Positions 7,281-61,096 of a DNA stretch of 64,000 nucleotides are shown in pieces. How positions within the stretch are numbered: the first letter of the stretch is position 1; the number at the start of each line of letters is the position of its first letter. Source of the DNA: Squalus acanthias (lineage: Eukaryota); NCBI GenBank assembly GCA_030390025.1, contig CM059432.1, forward strand, positions 1,674,001-1,738,000. The letters are read 5' to 3'. The notes below the pieces were generated by a model. That model made no database searches, was not told where the DNA came from, and was given only the letters and a program-made list of their open reading frames with translations. Made by a program: the position numbers and the translations under genes.

Positions 7281-10200
7281 ATTAACTGGGATAGTCAGAG
7301 TGTGAAAGGCTTAGAGGGTGCGGAATTCTTAAAGTGCATCCAGGAGAGCTTTTTGAGTCAGCATGTAGAAAGTCCTACAAGAGAGGGGGCGGTACTGGAC
7401 CTAATTCGAGGGAATGTAGCTGTGCAAGTGGTAGAAGTGTCAGTAGAAGAGCATTTTGGTGACAGTGACCATAATTCGGTGAGATTTAAGGTAGTCATGG
7501 AAAAGGACAAAGATGGACCGGAAATAAAGGTTCTAAATTGGGGGAAGGCCGGTTTTAATATGATAAGGCATGATCTGGACAAAGTGGACTGGGATCAGCT
7601 ACTTGTAGAAAAATCCACATCAGAGCAGTGGGAGTCTTTCAGAAAGGAAATAGAAAGAGTACAACGCCAACATGTTCCCCTAAAGGTCAAGGGTGGGACC
7701 AACAAGCCCAGGGAACCCTGGCTGTCAAGGGATATACAAGAATGGATTAGGAAAAAAAGGGAGGCTTTTGGCAGATACAAAGGACTAAAAACAGTGGAAG
7801 CCCTAGAGGAGTATAGAAAATGCAGGGGGGTACTTAAAAAAGAAATTAGGAGAGCGAAGAGGGTGCATGAAAAAACTGGTGGGCAAAATAAAGGAAAATC
7901 CCAAGGTGTTTTATAAGTATATTAAGGGCAAGAGGATAACCAAGGAAAGAGTAGGGCCCATTAGGGACCAAAGTGGCAATCTGTGTGTGGAGCTGGAAGA
8001 CGTGGGTGAGGTTTTAAATGAATATTTTGCATCTGTGTTCACTATGGAGAAGGACGATGTAGGCATAGAAATCAGGCAGGGGGATTGTGATATACTTGAA
8101 CAAATTAGTATTGAGAGGGAGGAGGTACTAGCGGTTTTAGCGGGCTTAAAAGTGGATAAATCCCCAGGCCCAGACGAGATGTATCCCAGGCTGCTGTGAG
8201 GAAAGGGAGGAGATTGCAGGGGCTCTGACACAAATTTTCAGAACCTCTCTGGCCACAGGGGAGGTGCCAGAGGACTGGAGGACAGCTAACGTAGTACCAT
8301 TATTCAAGAAGGGTAGTAGGGATAAACCAGGGAATTACAGGCCAGCGAGCCTAACATCAGTGGTAGGGAAATTATTGGAAAAAATTCTGAGGGACAGAAT
8401 TAGTCTCCACTTGGAGAGGCAAGGATTAATCAAGGATAGTCAGCATGGCTTTGTCAGGGGGAGATCATGTCTAACCAATTTGATTGAATTTTTCGAGGGG
8501 GTGACTAGGTGTGTGGATGAGGGTAGTGCAGTTGATGTAGTCTACATGGACTTCAGTAAGGCTTTTGACAAAGTCCCGCATGGGAGACTGGTCAAGAAGG
8601 TAAGAGCCCATGGGATCCAAGGCAATTTGGCACATTGGATCCAAAATTGGCTCAGTGGCAGGAGGCAGAGGGTGATGGTCGAAGGTTGTTTTTGTGACTG
8701 GAAGCCTGTGTCCAGTGGTGTACCGCAGGGATCGGTGCTGGGTCCTTTGCTGTTTGTAGTGTACATTAATGATTTAGATATGAATGTAGGAGGTATGATC
8801 AGTAAGTTCGCAGATGACACGAAAATTGGTGGAGTGCTAAATAGCGAGGAGGGAAGCCTCAGGCTACAGGACGATATAGACGGGTTGGTCAGATGGGCAG
8901 AACAGTGGCAAATGGTACTTAACCCTGAAAAGTGTGAGGTGATGCATTTTGGGAGGACTAACAAGGCAAGGGAATACACAATGAATGGTAGGATCCTAGG
9001 AAGGACAGAGGATCTGAGGGATCTTGGTGTGCATGTACATAGATCCCTGAAGGCAGCAGGACAGGTAGATAAGGTGGTTAAGAAGGCATATGGGATACTT
9101 GCCTTCATTAGCCGAGGCATAGAATATAAGAGCAGGGAGGTTATGATGGAGCTGTACAAAACGCTAGTTAGGCCACAGCTGGAATACTGTGTGCAGTTCT
9201 GGTTGCCACACTATAGGAAGGATGTGATTGCATTGGAGAGGGTGCAGAGGAGATTCACCAGGATGTTACCTGGGCTGGAGCGCTTCAGCTATGAAGAGAG
9301 ATTGGACAGGCTGGGGTTGTTTTCCTTAGAGCAGAGAAGGCTGAGGGGGGGACCTGATTGAGGTGTACAAAATTATGAGGGGCATAGACAGGGTAGATAG
9401 AAAGGAACTTTTCCCCTTAGTAGAGGGGTCAATAACCAGGGGGCATAGTTTCAAGGTAAGGGGCAGGTGGTTTAGAGGGGATTTGAGGAAAAACTTTTTC
9501 ACCCAGAGGGTGGTTGGAATCTGGAACTCACTGCCTGAAAGGATGGTAGAAGCAGGAACCCTCACAACATTCAAGAAGCATTTAGATGAGCACTTGAAAC
9601 GCCATAGCATACAAGGCTACGGACCAAGTGCTGGAAAATGGGATTAGAATAGACAGGGCTTGATGGCCGGCGCGGACACGATGGGCCGAAGGGCCTCTTT
9701 CTGTGCTGTATAACTATGACTCTATGGGGTAAAAATTCAGTTGGTTGCGCCTCCCGTTAGCGCCTTAAGAGGGCGCTAATGGGGCGCAAAGCCGCTAACG
9801 CCCGGGCGCAGCGATGTTTGCGCCGCTCCGGAACTTAACTAGACATTGTGCGGCGGCGCTAAACTTTACCGCTGCGACCACCTGCGCGCGCAGATTGTGA
9901 CGTCATTCCATGGTGCAACGCCCTTGTGGCGCCCCGGAGCGGAAATTGAGTGGCGCCCCCTGCCTTACCGCCTGGCGCATCCAACGACCGGAAGACTGGA
10001 ACGCTATCAATCGCTGTGGGGCTGGGGGGGGCGCTATTTAAAGGGGGCCTCTTCCTGTCTTTTTCTGTGGTTGACATTTTTGCACCACTCGTTCTGAGAG
10101 AGAGAGAGAGATTCGGAGAGAGAGAAAGAGAGACTTCTGCATTGAGTCAACGCTTTGTGAGGTAGTCTTGCCTACTGATCCTAACAGTTGGCCCCCCCCC

Positions 10201-10476
10201 GCTTTAAGAACTGGCCGGCGCCAGTGTGTCTGTGTTCCCTCGCTAACTGGCAGTAGCTGCGCTGCGCTCGCGCGCTGAGTTAGCGCCTCACTGCTCGGCC
10301 TTTGCGCCTTAAGACAGGTGTGCAGCGCCTGATTTAGCGCTCCACTCACCTCCCGGGGCGGTAAAAGTGAAGTTTCCAGTCAGTGGCGATAATTAGCGCC
10401 AGGCGCTAATATTTGCGTCCAGACGATATTTGCGCCCCAAACGGGGCGCGACCTAATTTTTCCCCCTATGACTCTA
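7281..10476 (+). mobile_element. 5'-truncated CR1 LINE with frameshifted ORF2 (RT ORF 8264-9361)
   Basis: SDHN end of APE, PEDWRTANVVPLFKKG, DFSKAFDKVPH, GVPQGSVLGP, KFADD; 3' (ACTCTATG)n tail interrupted by a MITE. Confidence 0.95.
9726..10466. mobile_element. Harbinger MITE 1 (deletion derivative of 37122-41320)
   Basis: Ends GGGGTAAAAATTCAG / CTAATTTTTCCCCC; TAT TSD (9723-9725, 10467-10469); ~450 bp matches the right end and ~280 bp the left end of the autonomous element. Confidence 0.93.
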
Positions 10477-17211: not shown

Positions 17212-17411
17212 NNNNNNNNNNNNNNNNNNNNNNNNNNNNNNNNNNNNNNNNNNNNNNNNNNNNNNNNNNNNNNNNNNNNNNNNNNNNNNNNNNNNNNNNN
17301 NNNNNNNNNNNNNNNNNNNNNNNNNNNNNNNNNNNNNNNNNNNNNNNNNNNNNNNNNNNNNNNNNNNNNNNNNNNNNNNNNNNNNNNNNNNNNNNNNNNN
17401 NNNNNNNNNNN
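17212..17411. other. Assembly gap (200 N)
   Basis: Run of N. Confidence 1.
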
Positions 17412-17827
17412 CTGGATTTTTGTGCTTAAGTCTCCGGAACAGGTCTTGAACCCACAACCTTCTGGCTCTGAAGGCGAGTGTGCTGCCCCTTGAGCCATGG
17501 CTAAAAAAAATTGTAATTCTCGTATAAAATCAATAAAATGTGCACTGACAGAATTGGCAAATGAAAGTGCCAGGGGGTAAGAAAGTTTATATTTAACTTG
17601 AACTTTTAACCATAACATTGTGTTTTTTTTAAATATAAAGTAAAATGTTAAAAAGGTGGCTCTTAATCGTTTGAAATGCTAAAGCTGTAAATTCTCTTTA
17701 CGACCCTCCACAGACTGCATTTCAAGGCTGGTGATGAAGTGGAATTCTTAATTCACCATCCAGCACTGGAACTTTCTGTTTTTGTATCTGCTAATGGTTC
17801 CGTCCCGGACCTTTTCCAGACACCTGG

Positions 17828-36332: not shown

Positions 36333-36952
36333 AAACATAGAAACATAGAAGATAGGAGCAGGAGTAGGCCATTCGGCCCCTCGAGCCTGCTCCGCCATTC
36401 GATGAGATCATGGCTGATCATCCAAACTCAGTACCCTGTCCCTGCTTTCTCCCCATATCCCTTGATCCCTTTAGCCTTAAGAAATATATCTAACTCCTTC
36501 TTGAATATATTTAATGAATTGGCCTCTACTGCCTTGTGTGGTAGAGAATTCCACAGGTTCACCACTCTCTGGGTGAAGAAATTCCTCCTCATCTCAGTCC
36601 TAAATGGCTTACCCCTTATCCTCAGACTGTGACCCCTGGTTCTGGACTGCCCCGCCATCGGGAACATCCTTCCTGCATCTAGTCTGTCTAGTCCTGTTAG
36701 AATTTTATAAGTTTCAATGAGATCCCCTCTCATTCTTCTATACTCCAGCGAGTATAAGCCCAATCGACCCAATCTCTCCTCATACGTCATTCCTGCCATC
36801 CCAGGTATCAGCCTTGTGAATCTTCGCTGCACTCCCTCCATGGCAAGAACATCCTTCCTCAGATAAGGCGACCAAAACTGTCCACAATACTCAAGGTGTG
36901 GTCTCACCAAGGCCCTGTACAACTGCAGCAAGACATCCTTGCTCCTGTACTC
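36333..36952 (-). mobile_element. CR1 3' fragment nested in the full-length CR1
   Basis: LYRALVRPHLEYC...; near-identical subfamily copy at 57420-57965. Confidence 0.9.
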
Positions 36953-37478
36953 GACCCCTTAATACATCCTCTCTCACTATGTTTATTCCATCTAATATTT
37001 CACACTCCTCCCCCCCGATAGCAATGTCTGCTTCACCCCTCTCCTTTGTGAAAACAGACGCAAAGTATTCATTAAGAACCCTACCGACGTCTCCCGCCTC
37101 CACACACAGATTACACTCATGGGGGTAGAAATTAGGTCGCGCCCCATTTGGGGCGCAAATATCGTCCGGACGCAAATATTAGCGCCTGGCGCTAATTATC
37201 GGCACTGACAGGAAACTTCACTTTTACCGCCCCGGGAGGTGAGTGGAGCGCTAAAGCAGGCGCGGCACACCTGTCTTAAGGCGCAAAGGCCAAGGAGTGA
37301 GGCGCTAACTCAGCGCACGAGCGCAGCGCAGCTGCTGCCAGTTAGCGAGGGAACACAGACACACTGGCGCCGGACACTTCTTAAAGCGGGGGGGGCCACT
37401 TGCTCCCCAGCCACACCCTGCTCATTGCAGCCTTGAATCTCAGCCTGGAGAGACCTGTAATCCATTTTGCTGCCAAGC

Positions 37479-39355
37479 ATGGAGAGGGTGAGAGAACGCG
37501 CTCATCGCTTCACCGAGCGGGCCTTGGATGCTCTGGTTGACGCAGTGGAGCGCAGACGATGCATGCTGTTCCCGGAGAGTGGCAGGAGGCCTTTGCCACG
37601 CGAGTTCAGAAGAGTGTGGAGGGAGGTGGCTCAGAGCGTCTCCTCCAGGAGCATGGTGCCCAGGACCCATGTTCAATGCCGCAAAAAGTTCAACGACCTC
37701 ACTCGGGTCGTCAGGGTGAGTGGCTTTTTCTCAATACCTCTCCATCCCTCCATCTCAACCTCACTCTATGGCCAGAGGGTCTTAAAACCCCAATGCACAA
37801 CACTCATCCAACACCTATGGCCCTTTCATCAAACACACACACACATTCTACACTTTGCATACAGTAAGGGCTATTCACCTATGGGAGGCACATCAGGCAA
37901 GACCATGGCTGTATATTGTAAGGGCTATTCACCTATGGGAGGCACATCAGACAAGACCATGGCTGTATATTGTAAGGGCTATTCACCTATGGGAGGCACA
38001 TCAGGCAAGACCATGGCTGTATATTTACTCAGATGCTGTCCTTTTTCTTGCAGGCTAAGCTGGCTCATAATCGGAGACAGCAGCAACGGACGGGTGGAGG
38101 GCGGCTTCAGCTGCAACCCCTCAGCGATCTGGAGGAGCGCGTCCACAGGATTGTGGCAAGCCGGGTGATCGGTCCCGTCGCCACTGGAGACGCCGACCCC
38201 GTTGTGGACAGCAATGGTAAGGTCATCACCTTTTTGTCCTCTGTCCTTCCACTTGTCCCTCACAATACCAGCCTTTGACACTTTCAATCCAACTTGCTAA
38301 CTCGCTGCACTTATTCTTCCCTTACTGCCACCCTGTCCTCACGCTAAAGCCACTCTTGTACCTCCCTGCTTTCAGATGGTGATTCACCAGCTGAGGAGAC
38401 GGGCCCTGAAGCTGCCACTGGGAGTGATGCTGCAGCCGAGGAGGAAGAGGAAGCCGGAGCATCAGTGCCACCCTCTCCCGAGGAAGCCCATGCCCACACT
38501 GGGAACACGCCTTCCCCGGAGGGGAGCAGGGGGGAAGGGGCTGATGATGGTGAAGCTCCAGGACCCAGCGGGCTGCAGCAACGCCATGGGGGGGGTAGGG
38601 AAGAACGGGGGCCTTCTCCCCAGAGGGAGAGTATGCCAGACACTCCTACTGCAATGGACGCAGAGGAGGAGCGGCTGATTGCAGAAATGAACAGCCAGGC
38701 GGTGGGCATGCACACTGAGCTCATGGGTGCAGTGGGAAGGGTGCCCGAATGCATTGAGTCACTGGCAAGGAGTGTGGAGCACTTCGCTGTAGCACAGGCG
38801 GATGCCACACTAACGCTTAGTGCTGCAATTCAGTCACTGGCTGCCGTGATCCCACCTCTGACTGCTCTCATACAGACTCAGATGGAGGCCACGCGAGCAC
38901 AGACTGCTGCCAACCTCGATGGTTCGTGCACATGTCCCCGGGGCTGTCACCGCGCCGCAGCAGGCCAGCAATCTGTTCTCCGGCAGATTGCTCCGGATGC
39001 TGAAGTGCTGCCCCGTGGGAGTGCCAGTGTGTCGGGCGAGCAGGGAGTTGCTGTCCTCTCTCACGATGACAGCATTCCTGCTGCCAACACTGTCACTTCT
39101 CCACTGCACTTGCCACCGCCTGTAGGACAGACTGCTGCCGCCCATGCAGAGTTGGTGCAGTCTGCAGCCGGGCCCTCCAGGCCCAGAAGTGGTCGAGGCC
39201 GTCCTTCAGGGGCATCTGCAGTGTCAGGGTCTGACGAGCAGCAGCCTTCCACCAGCCTTGCTGCAGCCACTGAGGTCCCATTACGGAGGAGCAGTAGGGT
39301 TGGAAGGGGGGAAGTGCGCAAGGGAAGGAGATCACCCTCGAAGGGCAAAAAGTAG
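37479..39355 (+). CDS. Harbinger Myb/SANT-like DNA-binding protein; predicted exons 37479-37715, 38054-38216, 38376-39355 (~459 aa)
   Basis: RAHRFTERALDALVDAV...WREVAQSVSS...RTHVQCRKKFNDL; canonical GTGAGT / TTGCAG and GTAAGG / TTTCAG splice sites with matching phases (0, 1); basic NLS-like C-terminus RKGRRSPSKGKK. Confidence 0.85.
37864..38025. repeat. 54-bp tandem repeat x3 in intron 1 of the Myb-like gene
   Basis: GTAAGGGCTATTCACCTATGGGAGGCACATCAGGCAAGACCATGGCTGTATATT at 37864, 37918, 37972. Confidence 0.97.
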
Positions 39356-39648
39356 GAGGTGTGCCAAAATGCTGGTCATTTTTTATTAAAGGCCGAGGGT
39401 CGTGGTCCAACTTTTGTTTAGTGTTTTGGACATTATCTCCAGGTTGTGAGAACCAGTTATGTTATTGACTGTTTTTTTGTGTTTATTTCTATGAGTTTGT
39501 CATGAGGAATTGACACACACAGAGTTTGTAAAATAAATAAGTTTCTGTTTTCAAAATATACATGGCTGGTGCTTGGAATTATTGGTGCCTTGGCCGGCTT
39601 AGGGGTTGCGTGCTGGGTTGATTAGTGTTTGTAGCAATGGCAGGGGCC

Positions 39649-40809
39649 CTAGAAGCGGCTTGCTATTAGTCGTTGACGGACGGCCCTTGCAGTTTGACCA
39701 TTGTGGGCCGCCCTCCCGCCTTGGTGCTGCTGATGATCATCGTCCTCGTCCTCTTCCTCCTCTTCCTCCTCCTCCTCTGGTGGTGCTACAAGGCCTGGTG
39801 GCATTGGCTGGGTCCTGAGGATTGCCATGTTGTGCAACATGCAGCACACGACTACGAAGTTCGAAACTTGCTCAGGCGAGTACTGCAGGGCTCCTCCGGA
39901 ATGGTCCAGACAGCGGAACCGTTGTTTCAGCACGCCGATTGTGCGCTCAATAATGTTCCTGGTTGCTTGATGGCTTTCATTGTACCGCAGCTCAGCAGGG
40001 GTGTTTGGCGTACGGAGCGGTGTCATCAGCCAGGTGCTCAATGCGTACCCCTTGTCCCCCAGAAGCCAACCAACTGGCTGATGCGGTGCCTCGAAAACTT
40101 CTGCCACAGTAGTCTGGCGCAGGATGAAAGCATCGTGGCAGCTGCCCGGATAGTGGGCATTGACAGCGAGAATCACCTGTCTGTGGTCACAGACCAACTG
40201 CACATTCAAGGAATGGAACCCCTTCCTGTCCCTGAATTCCTCTGCATTCTCTCGCGGAGCACGCAAAGCCACATGCGTGCAGTCAATGGCGCCCTGCACC
40301 ATGGGGAAGCCCGCTACCCTCGCAAAGCCCAGAGCACGGTCACGCTGCTTGTCTGGGGTCATAGGGAAAGAGATGAAGTCTCGTCTCCTTCTGAAGAGGG
40401 CATTGGTGACCTGACGGATGCAGCGATGCACCGCAAACTGGGAGATATTGGCGAGGTCCCCAGCAGCAGCTTGGAATGAGCCAGTGGCGTAGAAGTTCAA
40501 AGCCACTGTGACCTTCACTGCCACCGACAGAGACGTCCTGGACCTCAGCTGAGGCTGCAGATCTGGCTGCAGCAGGTGGCAGAGCTCAGTGACCACCTCC
40601 TTGCTGAATTGCAGCCTCCGCAAACACAGCTCCTCGGACATATGGATGTAGGAGAGCTGTTCACGATATACCCTGGGAGGGTAAGCTCTCCTGTACATGC
40701 GCCTGATGGCCCTCCTCCGTCTGGCCATCATTGCCACTCTCTGTCTGCGTCTCTGTATCCTCCGATTCAGCTGGAGCAGGACGACGCCCCCAATCATTGC
40801 AGCCCCCAT
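39649..40809 (-). CDS. Harbinger (HARBI1-like) DDE transposase, ~386 aa from the MGAA start
   Basis: ALNFYATGSFQ HTH region, GAIDCTH, KGFHSLNVQLVCD, PGSCHDAFIL, LLGDKGY, RNIIERTIGVLKQRFRCL, CCMLHN; uninterrupted ORF. Confidence 0.95.
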   Translation of the reverse strand: MGAAMIGGVVLLQLNRRIQRRRQRVAMMARRRRAIRRMYRRAYPPRVYREQLSYIHMSEELCLRRLQFSKEVVTELCHLLQPDLQPQLRSRTSLSVAVKVTVALNFYATGSFQAAAGDLANISQFAVHRCIRQVTNALFRRRRDFISFPMTPDKQRDRALGFARVAGFPMVQGAIDCTHVALRAPRENAEEFRDRKGFHSLNVQLVCDHRQVILAVNAHYPGSCHDAFILRQTTVAEVFEAPHQPVGWLLGDKGYALSTWLMTPLRTPNTPAELRYNESHQATRNIIERTIGVLKQRFRCLDHSGGALQYSPEQVSNFVVVCCMLHNMAILRTQPMPPGLVAPPEEEEEEEEEDEDDDHQQHQGGRAAHNGQTARAVRQRLIASRF

Positions 40810-41320
40810 ATTCTCTTTGCCAGAAAAGTAATGAGGTACAGCAACTAAAGTAGCAACAAAGTTAGGATGAATAGGCAAAACTACCTCACAAAGCGTTGAG
40901 TCAATGTAGAAGTCTCTCTCGCTCTCTCCCCGAATCTCTCTCTCTCTCTCAGAACGAGTGGTGCATAAATGTCGACCACAGAAAAAGACAGGAAGAGGCC
41001 CCCTTTAAATAGCGCCCCCCCCAGCCCCACACCGATTGATAACGTTCCAGTCTTCCGGTCGTTGGAAGCGCCAGGCGGTAAGGCAGGGGGCGCCACTCAA
41101 TTTCCGCTACGGGGCGCCCCAAGGGCGTTGCACCATGGAATGACGTCACAATCTGCGCGCGCAGGTGGTCGCAGCGGTAAGTTTTAGCGCCGCCGCACAA
41201 TCTCAAGTTAAGTTCTCGAGCGGCGCAAACATCGCTGCGCCCGGGCGTTAGCGGCTTAACGCCCCATTAGCGCCCTCTTAAGGCGCTAACGGGAGGCGCA
41301 ACCAAGTGAATTTTTACCCC

Positions 41321-42466
41321 ATGATCTCTAATAGGCCCTACCCTCTCTTTAGTTATCCTCTTACTCTTAATATATTTATAAAACATCTTTGGGTTTTCCC
41401 TGATTTTACTTGCCAAGAATTTTTCATGCTCTCTCTTTGCTTTCCTAATATCTTTTTTAATTGCATTCCTGCACTTTCTGTACTCCTCTAAAGATTCTGG
41501 AATATTTAGCCCTCGGTATCTGTCATACGCTTCCCTTTTTTTCTTTATCCTACCCTGTATGTCCCTAGACATCCAGGGGGCTCTAGATTTGTTAGTCCCA
41601 CCTTTTTTCTTTAAGGGCACATATTTGGTCTGAACCCTCCGGATCTCCTCCTTGACTGCCTCCCACTGCTCTGACACTGATTTACCTTCAAGTAGCTGTT
41701 TCCAATCCACTATCGCTAAATCCCCTCTGAGCTTAGCAAAATTTGCTTTTCCCCAATTTAGAATTTTTATTCCTGGTCTATCCTTGTCCTTTTCCATAAC
41801 TACCTTAAATCTAACTGAATTATGGTCACTAGCACCAAAATGCTCCCCCACTGATACGCCTTCTACCTGCCCAGCTTCATTCCCTAAAACTAAGTCCAGA
41901 ACCGCCCCCTCCCTTGTTGGGCTTGCTACATACTGGCTAAAAAAGTTCTCCTGGATGCATTTTAGGAATTCCTCACCCTCTATACCCTTCACACTAATTT
42001 TATCCCAGTTAATATTGGGGTAGTTGAAATCCCCTACTATTACTGCCCGATAGTTTTTGCACTTCTCAGAAATTTGTCGACATATTTGTTCTTCTATCTC
42101 CCTCTCACTGTTTGGGGGTCTGTAGTACACTCCCAGCAGTGTGATCGCCCCTTTTTTGTATTTTAATTCAACCCATATGGCCTCGTTTGATGATCCCTTC
42201 AACATATCATCCCTCCTCACAGCTGTAATAGTTTTTTTAATCAATGCCGCGAACCCCCCCCCCCTGGCTCCCTTTTTACCTCCCTCTCTATCCCGTCTGA
42301 AAATCCTGTAACCAGGAATGTTGAGCTGCCATACCTGCCCCTCTTTCAGCCATGTCTCTGTAATAGCTATAATATCATAGTCCCAAGTATCTACCTGTGC
42401 CCTCAGCTCATCTGCCTTGTTTGCTATACTCCTTGCATTGAAGTATATACCATTTAGTACAGGCAA
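41321..42466 (-). pseudogene. CR1 ORF2 N-terminus (APE endonuclease), disrupted by the Harbinger insertion
   Basis: YFNARSI, IAITETWL, YYRPPN, IVGDFNYP, LDLVLGN, SDHN. Confidence 0.93.
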
Positions 42467-42486
42467 ACCTCCTTGTTGACTACTAG

Positions 42487-43419
42487 TTAGTTTAAACCCT
42501 CCCCAACAGCACTAGCAAACCCTCCCGCGAGGATATTGGTCCCGTTCCCGTTGAGGTGCAACCCGTCTGGCTTGTAGAGGTCCCACCTCCCCCAGAAACG
42601 GTTCCAATTCCTCAGGAATCTAAAGCCCTCCCTCCCACACCATCTCTCCAGCCACGCATTCATCTGCTCTGTCCTCCTATTTCTGTACTCACTAGCACGT
42701 GGCACTGGTAGTAATCCGGAGATTACTACCTTTGAGGTCCTGCTTTTTAACCACTTTCCTAGCTCCCTAAACTCTGCCTGCAGGACCTCATCCCTCTTCC
42801 TACCTATGTCGTTGGTACCGATATGGACCACGACCTCTGGCTGTTCACCCTCCCCCCTCAGAATGCCCTGCAGCTGTTCAGTGACATCCTTGACCCTGGA
42901 ACCAGGAAGGCAACATATCATCCTGGAGCCATGTCTGCGGCCGCAGAAACGCCTGTCTGCTCCACTAACTATTGAATCCCCTATCACTATTGCTCTCCCT
43001 CTCCTCTCCCCCCCCCCCCCCGCCTGTGCAGCTGAGCCTTCCATGGTGCTGTGGACTTGGCTCTGGCTGCACTCCCCAGAGTGCACCGAATACTGGTTGG
43101 AGAGCGAGATGCACTCGGGGGACTCCTGCACTACCTGCCTGGTCCTCCTCTTCTGTCTGGCGGTCACCCATTCCCTCTCTGCCTGCACACTCTTAAGCTG
43201 CGGGGTGACCACCTCCCGAAACGTGCTATCCACGTAGCTCTCAGCCTCGCGGATGCACAGCAGTGACTGCAGCCGCCGCTCAAGCTCCGTAACCCGGTGC
43301 TCGAGCTGCTGTAGCTGGCGACACTTCCCGCACATGTGGTCGTCCAGACCACGGGAGGTGTCCAGGACTTCCCACATGGCACAGGATGTGCATTCCACGG
43401 GTGTGAGCTGCCCTGCCAT
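42487..43419 (-). CDS. CR1 ORF1 protein (zinc finger / coiled coil + SGNH esterase)
   Basis: CTSCAMW...CGKC zinc-finger-like; GDSIV, CLPG, HIGTND, DGLHLN SGNH blocks; ORF open. Confidence 0.9.
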   Translation of the reverse strand: MAGQLTPVECTSCAMWEVLDTSRGLDDHMCGKCRQLQQLEHRVTELERRLQSLLCIREAESYVDSTFREVVTPQLKSVQAEREWVTARQKRRTRQVVQESPECISLSNQYSVHSGECSQSQVHSTMEGSAAQAGGGGERRGRAIVIGDSIVSGADRRFCGRRHGSRMICCLPGSRVKDVTEQLQGILRGEGEQPEVVVHIGTNDIGRKRDEVLQAEFRELGKWLKSRTSKVVISGLLPVPRASEYRNRRTEQMNAWLERWCGREGFRFLRNWNRFWGRWDLYKPDGLHLNGNGTNILAGGFASAVGEGLN

Positions 43420-43681
43420 GCCTCTAATTAACAGTCTATTTACTAACCTAGCTGGAATAAACTTAAAAAACTTTAAGAAAGCCAAGTAAAAACACTTACC
43501 AGATACTCACCAATCAGCTCCCTCTTTTTGAACGCTACCCACTGAGCCACGGCTGACATATTAAGGGGCTTACAGAACCAAGGCGGGTAGTTGGAGTTAA
43601 GATACAGATCAGCTGTGATCTAATTGAATGGCAGAACAGGCTCGTGGGGCCGAATGGCCTCCTCCTGTTTCTATGCACCTA

Positions 43682-44807
43682 ACGTTTAACGTCTCATCCG
43701 AAAGACGACACCTCAGACAGTGCGGCACTCCCTCAGTACTGCCCCTCCGACAGTGCGGCGCTCCCTCAGTACTGCCCCTCCGACAGTGCAGCGCTCCCTC
43801 AGTACTGCCCCTCTGACAGTGCGGCACTCCCTCAGTACTGCCCCTCCGACAGTGCAGCGCTCCCTCAGTACTGCCCCTCCGACAGTGCGGCGCTCCCTCA
43901 GTACAGCCCCTCCGACAGTGCGGCGCTCCCTCAGTACTGCCCCTCCGACAGTGCGGCACTCCCTCAGTACTGCCCCTCCGACAGTGCGGCGCTCCCTCAG
44001 TACTGCCCCACCGACAGTGCGGCGCTCCCTCAGTACTGCCCCACCGACAGTGCGGCGCTCCCTCAGCACTGCCCCACCGACAGTGCGGCGCTCCCTCAGT
44101 ACTGCCCCACCGACAGTGCGGCGCTCCCTCAGTACTGCCCCTCTGACAGTGCGGCGCTCCCTCAGTACTGACCCTCCGACAGTGCAGCGCTCCCTCAGTA
44201 CTGACCCGCCGACAGTGCGGCGCTCCCTCAGTACTGACCCTCCGACAGTGCAGCGCTCCCTCAGTACTGCCCCACCGACAGTGCGGCGCTCCCTCAGTAC
44301 TGACCCTCTGACAGTGCAGCGCTCCCTCAGTACTGCCCCTCTGACAGTGCGGCGCTCCCTCAGTACTGACCCTCCGACAGTGCAGCGCTCCCTCAGTACT
44401 GCCCCACCGACAGTGCGGCGCTCCCTCAGTACTGCCCCACCGACAGTGCGGCGCTCCCTCAGTACTGCCCCTCCGACAGTGTGGCGCTCCCTCAGTACTG
44501 TCCCTCCGACAGTGCGGCGCACCCTCAGTACCGCCCCTCCGACAGTGCGGCACTCCCTCAGCACTGCCCCTCCGACAGTGCAGCGCTCCCTCAGTACTGT
44601 CCCTCCGACAGTGCGGCGCTCCCTCAGTACTGCCCCTCCGACAGTGCGGAGCTCCCTCAGTTCTGCCCATCTGACAGTACAGCGCTCCCTCAGTACTGCA
44701 CTGGAGTGTCAGCCTATATTTTTGTGCTCTCGTCTCTGGAGTGGGATTTGAACCCACAACCTTCTGACTCAGAGGCGAGGATGTTACCCACTGAGCCACG
44801 GCTGACA
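43682..44807 (-). mobile_element. 3'-truncated DeuSINE with ~30 units of the 33-bp repeat (43711-44698)
   Basis: Head at 44807, array, central domain start. Confidence 0.92.
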
Positions 44808-45029
44808 GTTACCTCTGCTGCTGAGGATCCAACAGAAATGTATTCAGCTATCCTGTCAATCCTTTTCGTCTATTGGGAAAGAAATTAGACTGTTAGCAGA
44901 GCTGAATAAGGCACCTGTCACCCATATAATGGATCCGTGTAGACCAAACTGGCTGACAGTATATCACTGATACCTGAAATTCAGGCACAGAAATTCTAGC
45001 TAGTAGAAATGCCATACTTTTACAAAAAA

Positions 45030-46129: not shown

Positions 46130-47410
46130 ACTAGGCTTATACTCCCTTGAGTATCGAAGATTAAGGGGTGATCTAATTGAGGTGTTTAAGATGATTAAAG
46201 AAGTTGATAGGGTCGATAGAGAGAAACTATTTCCTCTGGTGGGGGGAGTCCGGAACAAGGGGGCAGAACCTTGAAATTAGAGCCAGGCTATTCAGGGGTG
46301 ATGACAGGAAGCACTTCTTCACACAAAGGGGTGTGGAAATCTGGAACTCTCTCCCCCCAAAAAGCTGTCGAGGCTAGGGGTCAATTCAAAACTTCAAAAC
46401 GGGAATCGATGGATTTTTGTTCGGCAAGGGGTATTAAAAGAAAAGTCTTGCATTTCTATAGTGCCTTTCACCACCACCGGACATCCCAAAACACTTTACA
46501 GCCAATTAAGTACTTTTTTTGAAGTGTAGTCACTGTTGTAATGTAGGAAATGCGGCAGCCAATTTGCACACAGCAAGCTCTCACAAACAGCAATGTGATA
46601 ATGATCAGATCATCTGTTTTAGTGATGTTGGTTGAGGGATAAATATTGGCCCAGGACACCGGGGAGATCTCCAATGTTGTTCTTCGAAATAGTGCCATGG
46701 GATCTTTAACGTCCACCTGAAAGGGCAGATGGGGCCTCGGTTTAACGTCTCATCCGAAAGACGGCACCTCCAACAGTGCAGCACTCCCTCAGTACTGCCC
46801 CTCCGACAGTGCAGCACTCCCTCAGTACTGCCCCTCCGACAGTGCAGCGCTCCCTCAGTACTGCCCCTCCGACAGTGCAGCTCTCCCTCAGTACAGCACT
46901 CCCTCAGTACTGACCCTCCAACAGTGCGGCGCTCCCTCAGTACTGCCCCTCCGACAGTGCAGCGCTCCCTCAGTACTGCCCCTCCGACAGTGCGGCGCTC
47001 CCTTAGTACTGCCCCTCCGACAGTGCAGCACTCCCTCAGTACTGCCCCTCCGACAGTGCGGCGCTCCCTCAGTACTGCCCCTCCGACAGTGCAGCGCTCC
47101 CTCAGTACTGCCCCTCCGACAGTGCGGCGCTCCCTCAGTACTGCCCCTCCGACAGTGCAGCGCTCCCTCAGTACTGCACTGGGAGTGTCAGCCTAGATTT
47201 TTGTGCTCGGGTCTCTGGAGCGGGACTTGAACCCACAACCTTCTGACCCCAGAGGTGGGAGTGCTACCCACTGAGCCACGGCTGACATATTAAGGGGCTT
47301 ACAGAACCAAGGCGGGTAGTTGGAGTTAAGATGCAGAACAGCCCTGATCTAATTGAATGGCGGAACAGGCTCGAGGGGCCGAATGGCCTCCTCCTTTTCC
47401 TATGCTCCTA
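46130..47410 (+). mobile_element. CR1 3' fragment split by DeuSINE 46438-47287 (-)
   Basis: TATTAA duplicated at 46432-46437 and 47288-47293; the SINE carries ~12 units of the 33-bp repeat (46768-47177). Confidence 0.85.
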
Positions 47411-48677: not shown

Positions 48678-48934
48678 ATTTACTCTATCGAACATCTTCA
48701 TGTTTGATCATAAGTGCAGTGTCCAGACGAAGTGGATTTACAAGGCAGCGGTATAATTGCACCAGTGTCACAAAAACAATTCAGTTCCCATTTTGAAGTC
48801 TGCCCTTATTTTTATATAACACTTGAATTGATATTTATAGTCAATTAGCAAAATTACAGCAATTTTGGAAGCAAAAAAGGAGAGTTAGTTGCTGCATTGG
48901 ACTAAAGGGTACAAGCTCAGGAACAGAAGTGTAA

Positions 48935-51900
48935 CTTCACCACAATGACAAGGTGTAACTCCACCAACACTGAGAACAAGGGGAAACTCCACCAACACTG
49001 AGAACAAGGTGTAACTCCACCAACACTGAGAACAAGGTGTAACTCCACCAACACTGAGAACAAGGTGTAACTCCACCAACACTGAGAACAAGGTGAAACT
49101 CCACCAACACTGAGAACAAGGGGAAACTCCACCAACACTGAGAACAAGGTGTAACTCCACCTGCACTGAGAACAAGGTGTAACTCCACCAACACTGAGAA
49201 CAAGGTGTAACTCCACCAACACTGAGAACAAGGTGAAACTCCACCAACACTGAGAACAAGGGGAAACTCCACCAACACTGAGAACAAGGTGTAACTCCAC
49301 CAACACTGAGAACAAGGTGTAACTCCACCCGCACTGAGAACAAGGTGTAACTCCACCGTAACTGAGAACAAGGTGTAACTCCACCCGCACTGAGAACAAG
49401 GTGTAACTCCACCAACACTGAGAACAAGGTGTAACTCCACCAACACTGAGAACAAGGTGAAACTCCACCAACACTGAGAACAAGGTGAAACTCCACCAAC
49501 ACTGAGAACAAGGTGTAACTCCACCAACACTGAGAACAAGGTGTAACTCCACCGTAACTGAGAACAAGGTGTAACTCCACCAACACTGAGAACAAGGTGT
49601 AACTCCACCCGCACTGAGAACAAGGTGTAACTCCACCAACACTGAGAACAAGGTGTAACTCCACCCACAATGACAAGGTGTAACTCCACCAACACTGAGA
49701 ACAAGGTGTAACTCCACCCGCACTGAGAACAAGGTGTAACTCCACCAACACTGAGAACAAAGTGTAACTCCACCAACACTGAGAACAAGGTGTAACTCCA
49801 CCAACACTGAGAACAAGGTGTAACTCCACCAACACTGAGAACAAGGTGTAACTCCACTGTAACTGAGAACAAGGTGTAACTCCACCGTAACTGAGAACAA
49901 GGTGTAACTCCACCAACACTGAGAACAAGGTGTAACTCCACCAACACTGAGAACAAGCTGTAACTCCACCAACACTGAGAACAAGGTGTAACTCCACCAA
50001 CACTGAGAACAAGGTGTAACTCCACCAACACTGAGAACAAGGTGTAACTCCACCAACACTGAGAACAAGGTGTAACTCCACCCACACTGAGAACAAGGTG
50101 TAACTCCACCAACACTGAGAACAAGGTGTAACTCCACCAACACTGAGAACAAGGTGTAACTCCACCCGCACTGAGAACAAGGTGTAACTCCACCAACACT
50201 GAGAACAAAGTGTAACTCCACCAACACTGAGAACAAGGTGTAACTCCACCAACAGTGAGAACAAGGTGTAACTCCACCAACACTGAGAACAAGGAGTAAC
50301 TCCACCCGCACTGAGAACAAGGTGTAACTCCACCGTAACTGAGAACAAGGTGTAACTCCACCGTAACTGAGAACAAGGTGTAACTCCACCAACACTGAGA
50401 ACAAGGTGTAACTCCACCCGCACTGAGAACAAGGTGTAACTCCACCGTAACTGAGAACAAAGTGTAACTCCACCAACACTGAGAACAAGGTGTAACTCCA
50501 CCAACACTGAGAACAAGGTGTAACTCCACCCGCACTGAGAACAAGGTGTAACTCCACCAACACTGAGAACAAGGTGTAACTCCACCAACACTGAGAACAA
50601 GGTGTAACTCCACCAACACTGAGAACAAGGTGTAACTCCACCAACACTGAGAACAAGGTGTAACTCCACCAACACTGAGAACAAGGTGTAACTCCACCAA
50701 CACTGAGAACAAGGTGTAACTCCAGCAACACTGAGAACAAGGTGTAACTCCACCAACACTGAGAACAAGGTGTAACTCCACCGTAACTGAGAACAAGGTG
50801 TAACTCCACCAACACTGAGAACAAGGTGTAACTCCACCGTAACTGAGAACAAGGTGTAACTCCACCAACACTGAGAACAAGGTGTAACTCCACCGTAACT
50901 GAGAACAAGGTGTAACTCCACCAACACTGAGAACAAGGTGTAACTCCACCCGCACTGAGAACAAGGTGTAACTCCACCAACACTGAGAACAAGGTGAAAC
51001 TCCACCAACACTGAGAACAAGGTGTAACTCCACCCACACTGAGAACAAGGTGAAACTCCACCCACACTGAGAACAAGGTGTAACTCCACCCACACTGAGA
51101 ACAAGGTGAAACTCCACCGTAACTGAGGACAAGGTGTAACTCCACCAACACTGAGAACAAGGTGTAACTCCACCCACACTGAGAACAAGGTGAAACTCCA
51201 CCAACACTGAGAACAAGGTGTAACTCCACCCACACTGAGAACAAGGTGAAACTCCACCCACACTGAGAACAAGGTGTAACTCCACCGTAACTGAGAACAA
51301 GGTGTAACTCCACCCACACTGAGAACAAGGTGTAACTCCACCCGCACTGAGAACAAGGTGTAACTCCACCAACACTGAGAACAAGGTGTAACTCCACCCG
51401 CACTGAGAACAAGGTGAAACTCCACCAACACTGAGAACAAGGTGTAACTCCACCAACACTGAGAACAAGGTGTAGCTCCACCCGCACTGAGAACAAGGTG
51501 TAACTCCACCGTAACTGAGAACAAGGTGAAACTCCACCAACACTGAGAACATGGTGTAACTCCACCAACACTGAGAACAAGGTGTAACTCCACCCGCACT
51601 GAGAACAAGGAGTAACTCCACCAACACTGAGAACAAGGTGTAACTCCACCAACACTGAGAACAAGGTGTAACTCCACCCGCACTGAGAACAAGGTGTAAC
51701 TCCACCCGCACTGAGAACAAGGTGTAACTCCACCAACACTGAGAACAAGGTGTAACTCCACCAACAGTGAGAACAAGGTGTAACTCCACCCACACTGAGA
51801 ACAAGGTGTAACTCCACCAACACTGAGAACAAGGTGTAACTCCACCCGCACTGAGAACAAGGTGTAACTCCACCCGCACTGAGAACAAGGTGTAACTCCA

Positions 51901-54900
51901 CCAACACTGAGAACAAGGTGTAACTCCACCAACAGTGAGAACAAGGTGTAACTCCACCCACACTGAGAACAAGGTGTAACTCCACCTGCACTGAGAACAA
52001 GGAGTAACTCCACCAACACTGAGAACAAGGTGTAACTCCACCCGCACTGAGAACAAGGTGTAACTCCACCCGCACTGAGAACAAGGTGTAACTCCACCCG
52101 CACTGAGAACAAGGTGTAACTCCACCAACACTGAGAACAAGGTGTAACTCCACCAACACTGAGAACATGGTGTAACTCCACCAACACTGAGAACAAGGTG
52201 TAACTCCACCAACACTGAGAACAAGGTGTAACTCCACCCGCATTGAGAACAAGGTGTAACTCCACCAACACTGAGAACAAGGAGTAACTCCACCCACACT
52301 GAGAACAAGGTGTAACTCCACCTGCACTGAGGACAAGGAGTAACTCCACCAACACTGAGAACAAGGTGTAACTCCACCCGCACTGAGAACAAGGTGTAAC
52401 TCCACCAACACTGAGAACAAGGAGTAACTCCACCAACACTGAGAACATGGTGTAACTCCACCAACACTGAGAACAAGGTGTAACTCCACCCGCACTGAGA
52501 ACAAGGTGTAACTCCACCCGCACTGAGAACAAGGTGTAACTCCACCAACACTGAGAACAAGGTGTAACTCCACCAACACTGAGAACAAGGTGTAACTCCA
52601 CCAACAGTGAGAACAAGGTGTAACTCCACCAACACTGAGAACAAGGTGTAACTCCACCAACACTGAGGACAAGGTGTAACTCCACCAACACTGAGAACAA
52701 GGTGTAACTCCACCCGCACTGAGAACAAGGTGTAACTCCACCCGAACTGAGAACAAGGTGTAACTCCACCCGCACTGAGAACAAGGTGTAACTCCACCAA
52801 CACTGATAACAAGGTGTAACTCCACCCGCACTGAGAACAAGGTGTAACTCCACCAACACTGAGAACAAGGTGTAACTCCACCAACACTGATAACAAGGTG
52901 TAACTCCACCCGCACTGAGAACAAGGTGTAACTCCACCAACACTGAGAACAAGGTGTAACTCCACCAACACTGATAACAAGGTGAAACTCCACCAACACT
53001 GAGAACAAGGTGTAACTCCACCTGCACTGAGAACAAGGTGTAACTCCACCAACACTGAGAACAAGGTGTAACTCCACCCACACTGAGAACAAGGTGAAAC
53101 TCCACCAACACTGAGAACAAGGTGTAACTCCACCCACACTGAGAACAAGGTGAAACTCCACCAACACTGAGAACAAGGTGTAACTCCACCCACACTGAGA
53201 ACAAGGTGTAACTCCACCCGCACTGAGAACAAGGTGTAACTCCAGCAACACTGAGAACAAGGTGTAACTCCACCAACACTGAGAACAAGGTGTAACTCCA
53301 CCCACACTGAGAACAAGGTGTAACTCCACCAACACTGAGAACAAGGTGTAACTCCACCCACACTGAGAACAAGGTGTAACTCCACCAACACTGAGAACAA
53401 GGTGTAACTCCACCAACACTGAGAACAAGGTGTAACTCCACCCACACTGAGAACAAGGTGTAACTCCACCCGCACTGAGAACAAGGTGTAACTCCAGCAA
53501 CACTGAGAACAAGGTGTAACTCCACCAACACTGAGAACAAGGTGTAACTCCACCCGCACTGAGAACAAGGTGAAACTCCACCAACACTGAGAACAAGGTG
53601 TAACTCCACCAACACTGAGAACAAGGTGTAACTCCACCCGCACTGAGAACAAGGTGTAACTCCACCGTAACTGAGAACAAGGTGAAACTCCACCAACACT
53701 GAGAACATGGTGTAACTCCACCAACACTGAGAACAAGGTGTAACTCCACCCGCACTGAGAACAAGGAGTAACTCCACCAACACTGAGAACAAGGTGTAAC
53801 TCCACCAACACTGAGAACAAGGTGTAACTCCACCCGCACTGAGAACAAGGTGTAACTCCACCCGCACTGAGAACAAGGTGTAACTCCACCAACACTGAGA
53901 ACAAGGTGTAACTCCACCAACAGTGAGAACAAGGTGTAACTCCACCCACACTGAGAACAAGGTGTAACTCCACCAACACTGAGAACAAGGTGTAACTCCA
54001 CCTGCACTGAGAACAAGGAGTAACTCCACCAACACTGAGAACAAGGTGTAACTCCACCCGCACTGAGAACAAGGTGTAACTCCACCCGCACTGAGAACAA
54101 GGTGTAACTCCACCCGCACTGAGAACAAGGTGTAACTCCACCAACACTGAGAACAAGGTGTAACTCCACCAACACTGAGAACATGGTGTAACTCCACCAA
54201 CACTGATAACAAGGTGAAACTCCACCAACACTGAGAACAAGGTGTAACTCCACCCGCATTGAGAACAAGGTGTAACTCCACCAACACTGAGAACAAGGAG
54301 TAACTCCACCCACACTGAGAACAAGGTGTAACTCCACCCGCACTGAGAACAAGGTGTAACTCCACCCGCACTGAGAACAAGGTGTAACTCCACCCGCATT
54401 GAGAACAAGGTGTAACTCCACCAACACTGAGAACAAGGAGTAACTCCACCCACACTGAGAACAAGGTGTAACTCCACCTGCACTGAGGACAAGGAGTAAC
54501 TCCACCAACACTGAGAACAAGGTGTAACTCCACCAACACTGAGAACAAGGTGTAACTCCACCCGCACTGAGAACAAGGTGTAACTCCACCTGCACTGAGG
54601 ACAAGGAGTAACTCCACCAACACTGAGAACAAGGTGTAACTCCACCCGCACTGAGAACAAGGTGTAACTCCACCAACACTGAGAACAAGGTGTAACTCCA
54701 CCCGCACTGAGAACAAGGTGTAACTCCACCCGCACTGAGAACAAGGTGTAACTCCACCAACACTGAGAACAAGGTGTAACTCCACCAACACTGAGAACAA
54801 GGTGTAACTCCACCAACAGTGAGAACAAGGTGTAACTCCACCAACACTGAGAACAAGGTGTAACTCCACCAACACTGAGGACAAGGTGTAACTCCACCAA

Positions 54901-55346
54901 CACTGAGAACAAGGTGTAACTCCACCCGCACTGAGAACAAGGTGTAACTCCACCCGAACTGAGAACAAGGTGTAACTCCACCCGCACTGAGAACAAGGTG
55001 TAACTCCACCAACACTGATAACAAGGTGTAACTCCACCCGCACTGAGAACAAGGTGTAACTCCACCAACACTGAGAACAAGGTGTAACTCCACCAACACT
55101 GATAACAAGGTGTAACTCCACCCGCACTGAGAACAAGGTGTAACTCCACCAACACTGAGAACAAGGTGTAACTCCACCAACACTGATAACAAGGTGAAAC
55201 TCCACCAACACTGAGAACAAGGTGTAACTCCACCGTAACTGAGAACAAGGTGAAACTCCACCAACACTGAGAACAAGGTGAAACTCCACCAACACTGAGA
55301 ACAAGGTGTAACTCCACCAACACTGAGAACAAGGTGTAACTCCACC
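48935..55346. repeat. 28-bp tandem satellite, ~229 units
   Basis: Consensus GTGTAACTCCACCAACACTGAGAACAAG. Confidence 0.99.
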
Positions 55347-55494
55347 TTGCCACGTTTACATCGGCACATTTTATTCTAAAAGCGGACATCGGAATTTATA
55401 ATAGGAAACGTTGACACAATATTGTGATAAAATCTGACAACAGGGGGTAATGTTTTGCAGACTCTTATGAGACTCGGCTGCCCCGTGTCCTGAC

Positions 55495-56635: not shown

Positions 56636-57965
56636 ATAGAATCATAGGGGGAAAAATTCAGCTGCTTGCGCCTCCCGTTAGCGCCTTAAGAGGGCGCTAA
56701 TGGGGCGTAAAGCAGCTAACGCCCGGGCGCAGCGCCGCCCACGCCTCCCGAAAAATTCAGCGGGAGGTTAGCGGCGGCGCCAGCCGGTAGCGCCCTGTGG
56801 CGCTGCGCTGCCGGCGATGACGTCATCGCCGTGCGCAGCACCCCGCGCGCGCTCCAGCCGCGATCTTCAGTCGCGCCCCCTGACTTACCGCCAGACGCTA
56901 TGTCCGACGGGTTCAGGGAGGCGTACGTGCGGCCGGGGCGGCGATATTTAAAGGGGAGGTGGCAGGCGGCCATTTTTGTTGCTGGCCGCCTGCCAGCACC
57001 TGCCCCCGTTGCTGTCCCCGGCCCCCGTGAAGCCCCCCCACCGTGAAGTGCCGGCTGCGCTCCAAGAGCCCGGCACTTCTCTTGAGTGCCGGGCTCTTTT
57101 GCCGGCACTCCCGATCCCTGGGGGCCCAGCTGGGCCCCGGTTCGCGCTGCGCAGGGTCCCTCCCCTTTAAGAAGGGGAGGAAGGCCTGCAATACCGCGGC
57201 GCGACGTGCCGCAGCGCATGGCGCTGCGGCACGTAGCGCCAGGATATTCCCTCGCAGCGCCCCAAGAGGGATGCGGGGTGCTTCCAGTGGCGCCCCGCTT
57301 CCCTCTTGGGGCGCAACCACTGAAGTTCCGGCGCGGGGCCGCTAATTTTTTCGGGGCGCTAAAAGTCGCGCCCCGGCGAGGTTAGCGCCCCAAATGGGGC
57401 GCGACTCAATTTTTACCCCATAGAATCATAGAAGATAGGAGCAGGAGTAGGCCATTCGGCCCCTCTAGCCTGCTCCGCCATTCAATGCGATCATGGCTGA
57501 TCATCCAAATTCAGAACCCTGTCCCTGCTTTCTCCCCATATCCCTTGATCCCTTTAGCCTTAAGAAATATATCCAACTCCTTCTTGAATATATTTAATGA
57601 ATTGGCCTCTACTGCCTTCTGCGGCAGAGAATTCCATAGGTTCACCACTCTCTGGGTGAAGAAATTCCTCCTCATCTCAGTCCTAAATGGCTTACCCCTT
57701 ATCCTTAGACTGTGACCCCTGGTTCTGGACTCCCCGACCATCGGGAACATCCTTCCTGCATCTAGTCTGTCTAGTCCTGTCAGAATTTTATAAGTTTCAA
57801 TGAGATTCCCTCTCATTCTTCTAAACTCCAGCGAGTATAAGCCCAATCGACCCAATCTCTCTTCATACGTCATTCCTGCCATCCCAGGTATCAGCCTTGT
57901 GAATCTTCGCTGAACTCCTTCCATGGCAGGAACATCCTTCCTCAGATAAGGCGACCAAAACTGCA
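56636..57965 (-). mobile_element. CR1 3' fragment inside the solo LTR (tail split by MITE 2)
   Basis: QFWSPYLRKD...; AACTC duplicated at 56631-56635 and 57966-57970. Confidence 0.87.
56647..57419. mobile_element. Harbinger MITE 2
   Basis: Ends GGGGGAAAAATTCAG / CAATTTTTACCCC; ATA TSD (56644-56646, 57420-57422); interior diverged from the autonomous copy. Confidence 0.92.
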
Positions 57966-60294: not shown

Positions 60295-61096
60295 GGGGGA
60301 AAAATTCGTTTGGTTAAGAGGGCGCTAACGGGGCGCAAAGTAACTAGCGCCCGGGTGCGGTGATTTTTGCGCCGCTCGTGAAATTGACCAGACATTTTGC
60401 GGCGGCGCTAACCACTACCACCACGATCTCCTGCGCCCGCAGATCGTGACATCAGTCGAGCGCGCAACGCCCCGGTAGCGCCCCGGACCGGATATTGAAT
60501 GGCGCCTCCTGCCTTTCCGCCTGCCGCTAGCAACGACAGGTTGAGGGGAGCGTTTTGCAGTCGGGAAGGGACTGGGGGAGCGCTATTTAATGGTGAACGC
60601 TTCCTGCCTTTTTTTGTTGGTGACATTTTTGCACCACGCATTCTGAGAGAGAGAGAGAGAGAGACTTCTGGAGAGATTCAACGCTGTGTGAAGGAGTTTT
60701 GGGTACTGAGCAGCACTTTGCAGCTTCATTTTGATTTGCCCTTCCTTGCATCTATTTAGAAGAGACTATGGGGGCTGCACTCTGAGCTCTTTCCCTGGGC
60801 CTCTCCATTGTTCTTTCCAGGAGATTTGATGCACAGGTCTCTCCAGGCCGAGATTCAAGGCTGCAATGAGCAGGGTGTGGCTGGAGAGAAAGATCGACCC
60901 TCCCCTTTAAGAACTGGCCGTTCCTCGGCGTTAGCGCCTTAAGAGAGGTGTGTAGCACCTGATTTAGTGCGCCAATCACCTCCGGGGGTGATAGAAGCCA
61001 AATTTGCAGTCGGGGGCGATAATTTGTGCCAGGCGCTAATCTTAGCGCCCGGCCAATAATTGCGCCCCAAACGGGGCGATACTGAATTTCTCCCCC
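60295..61096. mobile_element. Harbinger MITE 3
   Basis: Ends GGGGGAAAAATTC / GAATTTCTCCCCC; GTA TSD (60292-60294, 61097-61099); retains the start codons of both Harbinger genes. Confidence 0.92.

Follow-up and report, generated by a model that had tools for sequence, protein, structure and literature searches.

Does a transposon with two open genes, complete ends and a perfect target-site duplication have to be a living one? This question is raised by a Harbinger-type element of the shark Squalus acanthias, which lies in a window of 64,000 nucleotides (positions 1,674,001 to 1,738,000 of contig CM059432.1, assembly GCA_030390025.1; all coordinates below are those of the window). Our reading, to which we give a probability of about 0.68, is that this is a full-length, two-gene Harbinger inserted in a CR1 retrotransposon, one copy of an abundant family of cartilaginous fishes, and that its frames have likely been kept open by slow neutral change and not by present activity. 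The first-pass annotation of this DNA had put the copy forward as a candidate for natural activity, a proposal that is not sustained in view of the private changes of the copy (Arg67 to Gln among them), the heterogeneity of its family and the presence of a dead CR1 that is equally open.

The host CR1 serves as an internal control. It is cut by the element and must predate the Harbinger insertion, and it is broken off at about 36960, ahead of its reverse transcriptase (RT) domain. Across the empty site, 450 codons of its second open reading frame (ORF2) are free of stops, as are 339 codons of ORF1. Since this older CR1 without an RT is as open as the Harbinger inside it, open frames are no proof of a living element. 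A genome with a slow clock keeps open frames, clean duplications and CpG-rich ends in dead elements, and activity is not thereby demonstrated; in our computation, a neutral copy that has changed by 0.1–0.5% keeps both Harbinger frames open with a probability of 0.34–0.93. As side observations on this CR1, ORF1 (42487–43506, minus strand) carries an SGNH/GDSL esterase-like domain, and at 36428–37121 the sequence, having reached codon 450 of ORF2, continues at about 36960 in a 3′ piece of CR1, the RT domain being lost, while loose ends of aligned contigs indicate that other CR1 copies read on normally at this breakpoint.

The family was followed in public sequencing runs with 443 words sampled from the element. 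Of the 24 runs listed, 18 hold at least half of the words, across seven organism codes (55–91% of words), four (X21–X24) hold next to none, and the runs under organism code A lack 9–17% of the words of the copy. Four of the 24 were aligned in detail, two of DNA (X1 and X3) and two (X16 and X19) that we take to be of RNA type, a guess backed by the intron 2 joint described below, none of the runs being recorded as RNA. In the two DNA runs 34,640 and 52,460 contigs aligned, with depth in 30 of 30 bins; these counts include 452 bases of CR1 flank and are not copy numbers, and depth was used neither for copy number nor for expression. Only 90–95% likeness was found for 43% and 41% of these contigs, which points to a heterogeneous family, and joints of further internal deletions were seen among the aligned contigs. 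High divergence among copies, which the first-pass annotation had named as an outcome that would speak against its proposal, is therefore present in part. In the RNA-type runs, which come under two organism codes, transcripts of the family are present and spliced. Over exon 1 of the Myb/SANT gene, 11 of 458 bases separate the main RNA-type contig from the copy, and among the longer RNA-type contigs listed each is 0–20 letters off this copy; no RNA contig can be traced to this locus in particular, and splicing is a property of the family.

The copy itself departs from the majority of its relatives. The alignments gave 197 difference rows in all, 40 of which, chosen by the tool, were listed, 39 of them inside the element, so the counts given here are lower bounds. 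At at least four positions (37849, 39399, 39549 and 40610) the other letter makes up 96–100% of the depth in all four runs, and in 17 of the 39 listed rows inside the element it makes up over half. Ten of these 17 rows are coding and nine alter the amino acid, a 9:1 ratio that fits drift but is weak evidence, being no different from neutral (p 0.18, with a neutral share of 0.72 that was assumed, not computed). The change at 40610 is of the CpG type and gives Gln at residue 67 of the transposase, where the family has Arg; Arg is found in 62 of the 95 homologues covering this column and in 16 of 19 in a closer alignment, and the structure model predicts a helix in the N-terminal domain that has this residue at one end. 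Private changes such as these may harm the copy. Changes inactivating the copy relative to the consensus, also named beforehand as evidence against activity, are matched in part by departures from the family majority that include a conserved Arg turned to Gln and that may affect activity. With the mutation rate of 7e-10 per base per generation given for the epaulette shark in the cited text (PMC10587355), four changes in 4,199 bases would correspond to about 1.4 million generations (0.7–6.8 million), a rough age with a rate from another species, in which one change is of the CpG type, some may be inherited within a sub-lineage or be assembly errors, and further changes may be unlisted.

What identifies the element as a Harbinger? 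The letters of its left end are GGGGTAGAAATT and those of its right end, in reverse complement, GGGGTAAAAATT; these terminal inverted repeats agree at 11 of 12 bases, after which the similarity ends. An ATG immediately adjoins the element at each side, and the frame of CR1 ORF2 is unbroken once the element and one ATG are taken out. The exact empty form, a joint skipping 4,202 bases, is present in all four sequencing runs aligned and confirms the duplication. These empty-form joints probably come from other CR1 copies, from which an empty form of this locus is indistinguishable, and no listed contig bridges either junction of the locus. The two terminal repeats, the perfect duplication and the clean empty site in the CR1 frame, all read by the first-pass annotation from the letters alone, stand as described. 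At 12 base pairs (bp) the repeats are shorter than the 25–50 bp usual for Harbingers (PMC9179366) and fall inside the range of 5–1042 bp given for the PHIS superfamily (PMC4482050), in both cases as stated in the passages cited. Membership of Harbinger/PHIS in the broad sense is indicated by these repeats, by a 3-bp duplication at all four family insertions in the window, and by the two genes.

The transposase frame runs uninterrupted for 386 amino acids (aa), as had been claimed, with GAIDCTH at 173, GDKGY at 251 and IERTIG at 287, and it matches PF13359 (DDE_Tnp_4) with an expectation value (E) of 1.2e-38 and 132.7 bits (cut-off 24.8). Two of its residues are unusual, D194 (N in 103 of 113 homologues) and A236 (P in 86 of 113); both positions are absent from the difference rows listed. 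A protein search gave 255 matches at E 1e-50, and among the best 120 of these the top ones are cartilaginous-fish proteins named automatically 'putative nuclease HARBI1', the best, from Pristiophorus, at 66%. A quick tree (46 rows) places the transposase among Pristiophorus paralogues, in a clade of 39 rows supported at 100 by the Shimodaira–Hasegawa-like approximate likelihood ratio test (SH-aLRT), in which all proteins but one unnamed row are from sharks and rays. A sequence search for solved structures gave no match to the transposase, and Foldseek with the transposase model gave none at E 0.001; its weak rows include DDE transposases and integrases and were not used as support. Upstream, a TATA-like box at 41011 was read from sequence motifs, and for the short intron predicted in the 5′ leader no joint was found among the 15 joints listed. 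As a side observation, several Harbinger-transposase-like sets in the tree (P0004/P0005, P0010/P0012, P0038/P0039 and P0008/P0015/P0016/P0021/P0022/P0030) span shark and ray orders on short branches; they are without a whole DDE triad and are candidate domesticated transposase genes of cartilaginous fishes, distinct from HARBI1.

The second gene, of the Myb/SANT type, has three exons on the plus strand and GT-AG introns, and codes for 459 aa without an internal stop. Its exon 1 matches PF13873 with 38.3 bits (cut-off 21.7), as expected of the second gene of a Harbinger. Removal of intron 2 is seen in each of the two RNA-type runs; in the two DNA runs its joint has a depth of 0. The joint of intron 1 is absent among the 15 joints listed (63 further joints are unlisted), and the main RNA-type contig over exon 1 runs unspliced through the intron 1 donor; of the spliceable gene first proposed, the GT-AG frame and the second intron are thus borne out, and the first intron remains a prediction. 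Intron 1 also holds a 54-bp unit repeated three times (37864–38025, copies 98% alike). A homologue search with exon 1 found one protein, from Narcine, at 50%, and this protein gave no alignment to exon 2 or exon 3; exon 3 itself gave no Pfam match and no homologue at E 0.001 among 8,000 candidates scored. The basic C-terminal tail of the protein is a predicted nuclear signal, and an RGRP stretch resembles an AT-hook.

The two genes converge on a short gap in which poly(A) signals for both, as first reported, are found on each strand: AATAAA at 39532 and ATTAAA at 39385 on the plus strand, and AATAAA at 39487–39482 and 39387–39382 on the minus strand. AATAAA on both strands occurs in 1.5% of 20,000 shuffles of the gap. 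Since the distal signals cross (39532 on the plus strand, 39487–39482 on the minus strand), the transcripts would overlap by at least 50 bases if these were used; we note on the side that such convergent 3′ ends, overlapping at 39382–39537, could form double-stranded RNA, and self-silencing by this means is a guess. [quoted passage not shown] At the ends of the element the ratio of observed to expected CpG reaches 0.79 and 1.16, versus 0.30 and 0.42 in the flanks. Hence the CpG enrichment noted by the first-pass annotation is real; as a sign of youth it was ruled out, since it belongs to the family and the three MITEs have retained it to the same degree (0.85–1.0).

These MITEs had been taken as substrates of the element. 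MITE 1 is indeed an internal-deletion derivative, with 38 differences from the element in 734 bases, and MITE 2 and MITE 3 belong to sister families only 72–80% like its ends. At 60768–60810, the opening codons of the transposase and Myb genes are joined in MITE 2, and its Myb-side leader resembles a loose end in the aligned contigs, which points to a sister autonomous family. The four duplications in the window (ATG, TAT, ATA and GTA) fit YAY/RTR on either strand. None of the four is a TWA (PIF/Harbinger in the strict sense, Han et al. 2015), a CWG (NuwaI) or an ANT (Pangu), and for the C-TNA-G target of NuwaII the TNA is found at none and the C...G flank at two; the element is set apart from these groups (PMC4482050, in the part cited) by its duplications. 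The flanks of the four insertions suggest a target GANTC-NWN-GANTC, with 28 of 40 consensus matches, a value reached by none of 200,000 random sets. This signal rests on the two sites in CR1 tails (p 0.001–0.007 keeping one of them, p 0.51 without both); the 8-bp tail of CR1 spells the GANTC-type target exactly, and the element's own site matches 5 of its 8 positions. An extended palindromic target is known for the superfamily (PMC2836001, PMC3016246, portions cited). The only unfilled perfect GANTC-NNN-GANTC sites of the window, at 24950 and 34764, both lie in 8-bp repeats resembling CR1 tails.

Several observations weigh against an ageing passenger. The catalytic triad is complete in this copy, and only 52 of the 109 homologues covering all three columns keep it; the fold of the transposase is predicted with confidence (predicted local distance difference test, pLDDT, 90; predicted template modelling score, pTM, 0.84), and Gln is also found at column 67 in 5 of the 95 homologues. 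Four private letters amount to only 0.1%, a lower bound that fits a young sub-lineage too, and they may be common to a few near-identical copies or include assembly errors. Shares of contig depth are noisy, the rows compared were those picked by the tool, and the clock was borrowed from another shark. The splicing of the Myb gene in RNA-type runs of two organisms means that the family is not silent, and five of the eight exon 1 codons that differ between the copy and the main RNA contig are changed silently, a hint of subfamily divergence under selection. Some of these points lend themselves to the proposal that the copy or the sub-lineage closest to it can still work autonomously, and that germ-line transposition of the family goes on and carries along elements of the MITE 1 type. 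That proposal would account for the two open frames, the whole triad and the presence of ends, splice and poly(A) motifs, as well as for the family-level splicing and for there being only four near-private letters among the rows listed; as for the words missing from the code A runs, individuals that do not carry the insertion would produce such a gap. We find it doubtful all the same. Incomplete contigs explain the missing words equally well, the older dead CR1 at the same place is equally open, the conserved Arg67 is Gln here and nine of ten minority coding letters alter the protein, while both MITE 1 and the longer RNA-type contigs listed have diverged from the copy to the extents given above.

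The wide sharing of the family invites another account, in which a recent horizontal transfer spread it among organisms and the copy is young. The literature has cases of horizontal Harbinger transfer for sea kraits and from teleost to teleost (PMC8437027, PMC9179366, in the sections cited), and the finding of 55–91% of the sampled words under seven organism codes could be taken in this sense. The transposase, however, nests inside the cartilaginous-fish clade of the quick tree (39 of 46 rows, SH-aLRT 100), its best named match is only 66% alike with no close non-shark donor among the matches listed, and slow substitution in sharks, as described in the cited text (PMC10587355), accounts for the sharing without any transfer, all of which makes a recent arrival improbable. 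Still harder to credit is a domesticated pair of host genes of the HARBI1/NAIF1 kind, kept by host selection. Databases do label all the close relatives 'putative nuclease HARBI1', and both frames are open; HARBI1 and NAIF1 represent the same two protein types, but they are host genes about 500 million years old (PMC9392472, part cited), whereas this element is multi-copy and has ends. It lies inside a CR1, it has terminal repeats, a duplication and empty forms, tens of thousands of related contigs were aligned, and its place in the tree is with the many long-branched Pristiophorus paralogues and apart from the cross-order sets, whose branches are short. The domesticated pair proper, a single conserved locus without transposon ends, was ruled out by the ends, the duplication and the many relatives, and the original statement that this is a two-component Harbinger transposon and not HARBI1/NAIF1 holds on these grounds and on the presence of both genes.

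How would such an element have moved? By analogy with Harbinger3_DR and Ping/Pong, the protein of the spliced Myb gene would attach to the subterminal motif repeats and carry its partner, the DDE transposase, into the nucleus. There the transposase would cleave the element at its 12-bp ends, leaving a clean empty site; reinsertion would take place at a short palindrome, likely GANTC-NWN-GANTC as in the CR1 tail, and duplicate 3 bp there, and MITEs with the same ends would be mobilised in trans. We infer all the binding and cutting steps from those systems. A bolder idea, which we regard as unlikely, is that of a natural shark Harbinger lineage that is still jumping, with YAY/RTR duplications outside the described PHIS groups and a target spelled by the 3′ tails of CR1. 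If this were true, the lineage would insert into abundant and harmless sites in CR1 tails, and would offer a ready two-protein, sequence-selective integration system that needs no consensus reconstruction.

The slow neutral passenger that we favour can be set beside the systems described in the cited portions of the literature. In the zebrafish and rice systems both proteins are required, the Myb protein binds the ends and imports the transposase, and excision is clean (PMC2836001, PMC9392472). Like Harbinger3_DR and its non-autonomous partner Harbinger3N_DR of zebrafish (PMC2836001, PMC3016246), the shark element combines a transposase with a Myb-like protein, a 3-bp duplication, a putative extended palindromic target and non-autonomous relatives. 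Harbinger3_DR, in contrast, has a CWG core in a 15-bp palindrome, where we find ATG, TAT, ATA and GTA with a GANTC-like flank, and it was rebuilt from a consensus and is active, whereas the shark element is a natural copy known from its sequence. In the papers compared (PMC2836001, PMC3016246), transposition of a vertebrate Harbinger was demonstrated with the rebuilt zebrafish element only. With NuwaI and NuwaII of the PHIS superfamily (PMC4482050) the element has in common two ORFs (DDE transposase and Myb/SANT), animal hosts and a short terminal repeat starting with GGG; its length of about 4.2 kb compares with averages of 4.5–4.7 kb, and the C...G flank recalls NuwaII at the two sites mentioned. 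In the same paper, families by the dozen are called 'potentially active' on the criterion that both ORFs are open.

Harbinger-Snek of Laticauda is, as described in the sections cited (PMC8437027), likewise a vertebrate element with two genes, high copy number and non-autonomous derivatives, a likeness of description. Its fully intact copies number 269 in L. colubrina, and L. laticaudata has a single one, intact and expressed; RNA reads cover both of its genes and activity is only suggested, while for the element described here there is Myb splicing at the family level. It differs in having come by horizontal transfer 15–25 million years ago, the shark transposase being nested among cartilaginous-fish proteins. 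Harbinger expression is also reported in medaka and salamander and for a coelacanth insert (PMC9179366), and with intact and expressed vertebrate Harbingers already published (PMC8437027) the novelty implied by the first-pass annotation was too high. Among cartilaginous fishes, the grey reef shark is noted to have Harbinger-type elements as its commonest DNA transposons (PMC12498223, part cited), and the cited part of a 2022 survey gives none for the elephant shark and calls for examination of other cartilaginous fishes (PMC9179366). Our literature search, by titles listed and without subscription journals, Dfam and Repbase, found no paper devoted to an elasmobranch Harbinger family. The element provides a fully mapped example of a shark Harbinger and, if it works, its natural pair of genes would be useful in studies of two-protein transposition and of sequence-selective integration.

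Table. Positions of the Harbinger-type element, its parts, its host and the related MITEs in the window
Feature	Position	Strand	Basis or remark
Harbinger-type element, 4,199 bp	37122–41320		bounded by terminal inverted repeats and ATG duplication
Left target-site duplication ATG	37119..37121	+	sequence; empty form in 4/4 runs
Left terminal inverted repeat, 12 bp	37122..37133	+	11/12 versus right end; same end in three MITEs
Left subterminal region, CpG-rich, TTAGCGC and GGGGCGC repeats	37134..37400	.	4 + 2 copies; predicted Myb binding sites
Myb/SANT gene, exon 1, 79 aa, DNA-binding domain	37479..37715	+	PF13873 E 1.3e-9, PF13837 E 1e-6; GT donor
Predicted intron 1	37716..38053	+	GT-AG, frame kept
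Exon 2	38054..38216	+	3′ boundary confirmed by intron 2 joint
Intron 2, 159 bp	38217..38375	+	GT..AG joint skipping 159 bases; spliced at family level
Exon 3: acidic/low-complexity region, basic C-terminal tail (predicted nuclear signal), stop	38376..39355	+	open frame
Shared 3′ region, poly(A) motifs on both strands	39356..39648	.	293 bp between the two genes
Transposase gene, 386 aa	40809–39649	-	open frame, PF13359, triad D176-D252-E288; Gln at residue 67
Predicted short intron, transposase 5′ leader	40816..40884	-	donor 40884, acceptor AG ending 40815 or 40813; motifs only
Right subterminal region, same repeated motifs	41040..41308	.	3 + 3 copies
Right terminal inverted repeat, 12 bp	41309..41320	-	end comparison
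Right target-site duplication ATG	41321..41323	+	sequence
Host CR1 long interspersed nuclear element	36960..43506	-	open ORF1 and endonuclease part of ORF2; PF13472, PF03372
MITE 1, 741 bp	9726..10466	-	internal-deletion derivative, 94.8% like element ends; duplication TAT; in 8-bp CR1 tail
MITE 3, 773 bp	56647..57419	-	sister family, 72–74% like ends; duplication ATA; in tail of minus-strand CR1
MITE 2, 802 bp	60295..61096	-	sister family, 73–80% like ends; duplication GTA; first codons of both genes retained

No host exons were found in the eight non-repeat ORFs scanned, a small subset of those in the window, and a run of N at about 17210–17420 marks an assembly gap. A broken remnant of a long terminal repeat retrotransposon, with RT and RNase H matches, lies on the minus strand at 2298–4759. 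A GC-rich tandem repeat, seen as repeated translations, occurs at about 11600–12500, 43600–44900 and 46600–47250, in addition to a 28-bp satellite of about 228 units at about 48800–55400, whose sequence happens to leave all three minus-strand frames open for more than 2,100 codons.

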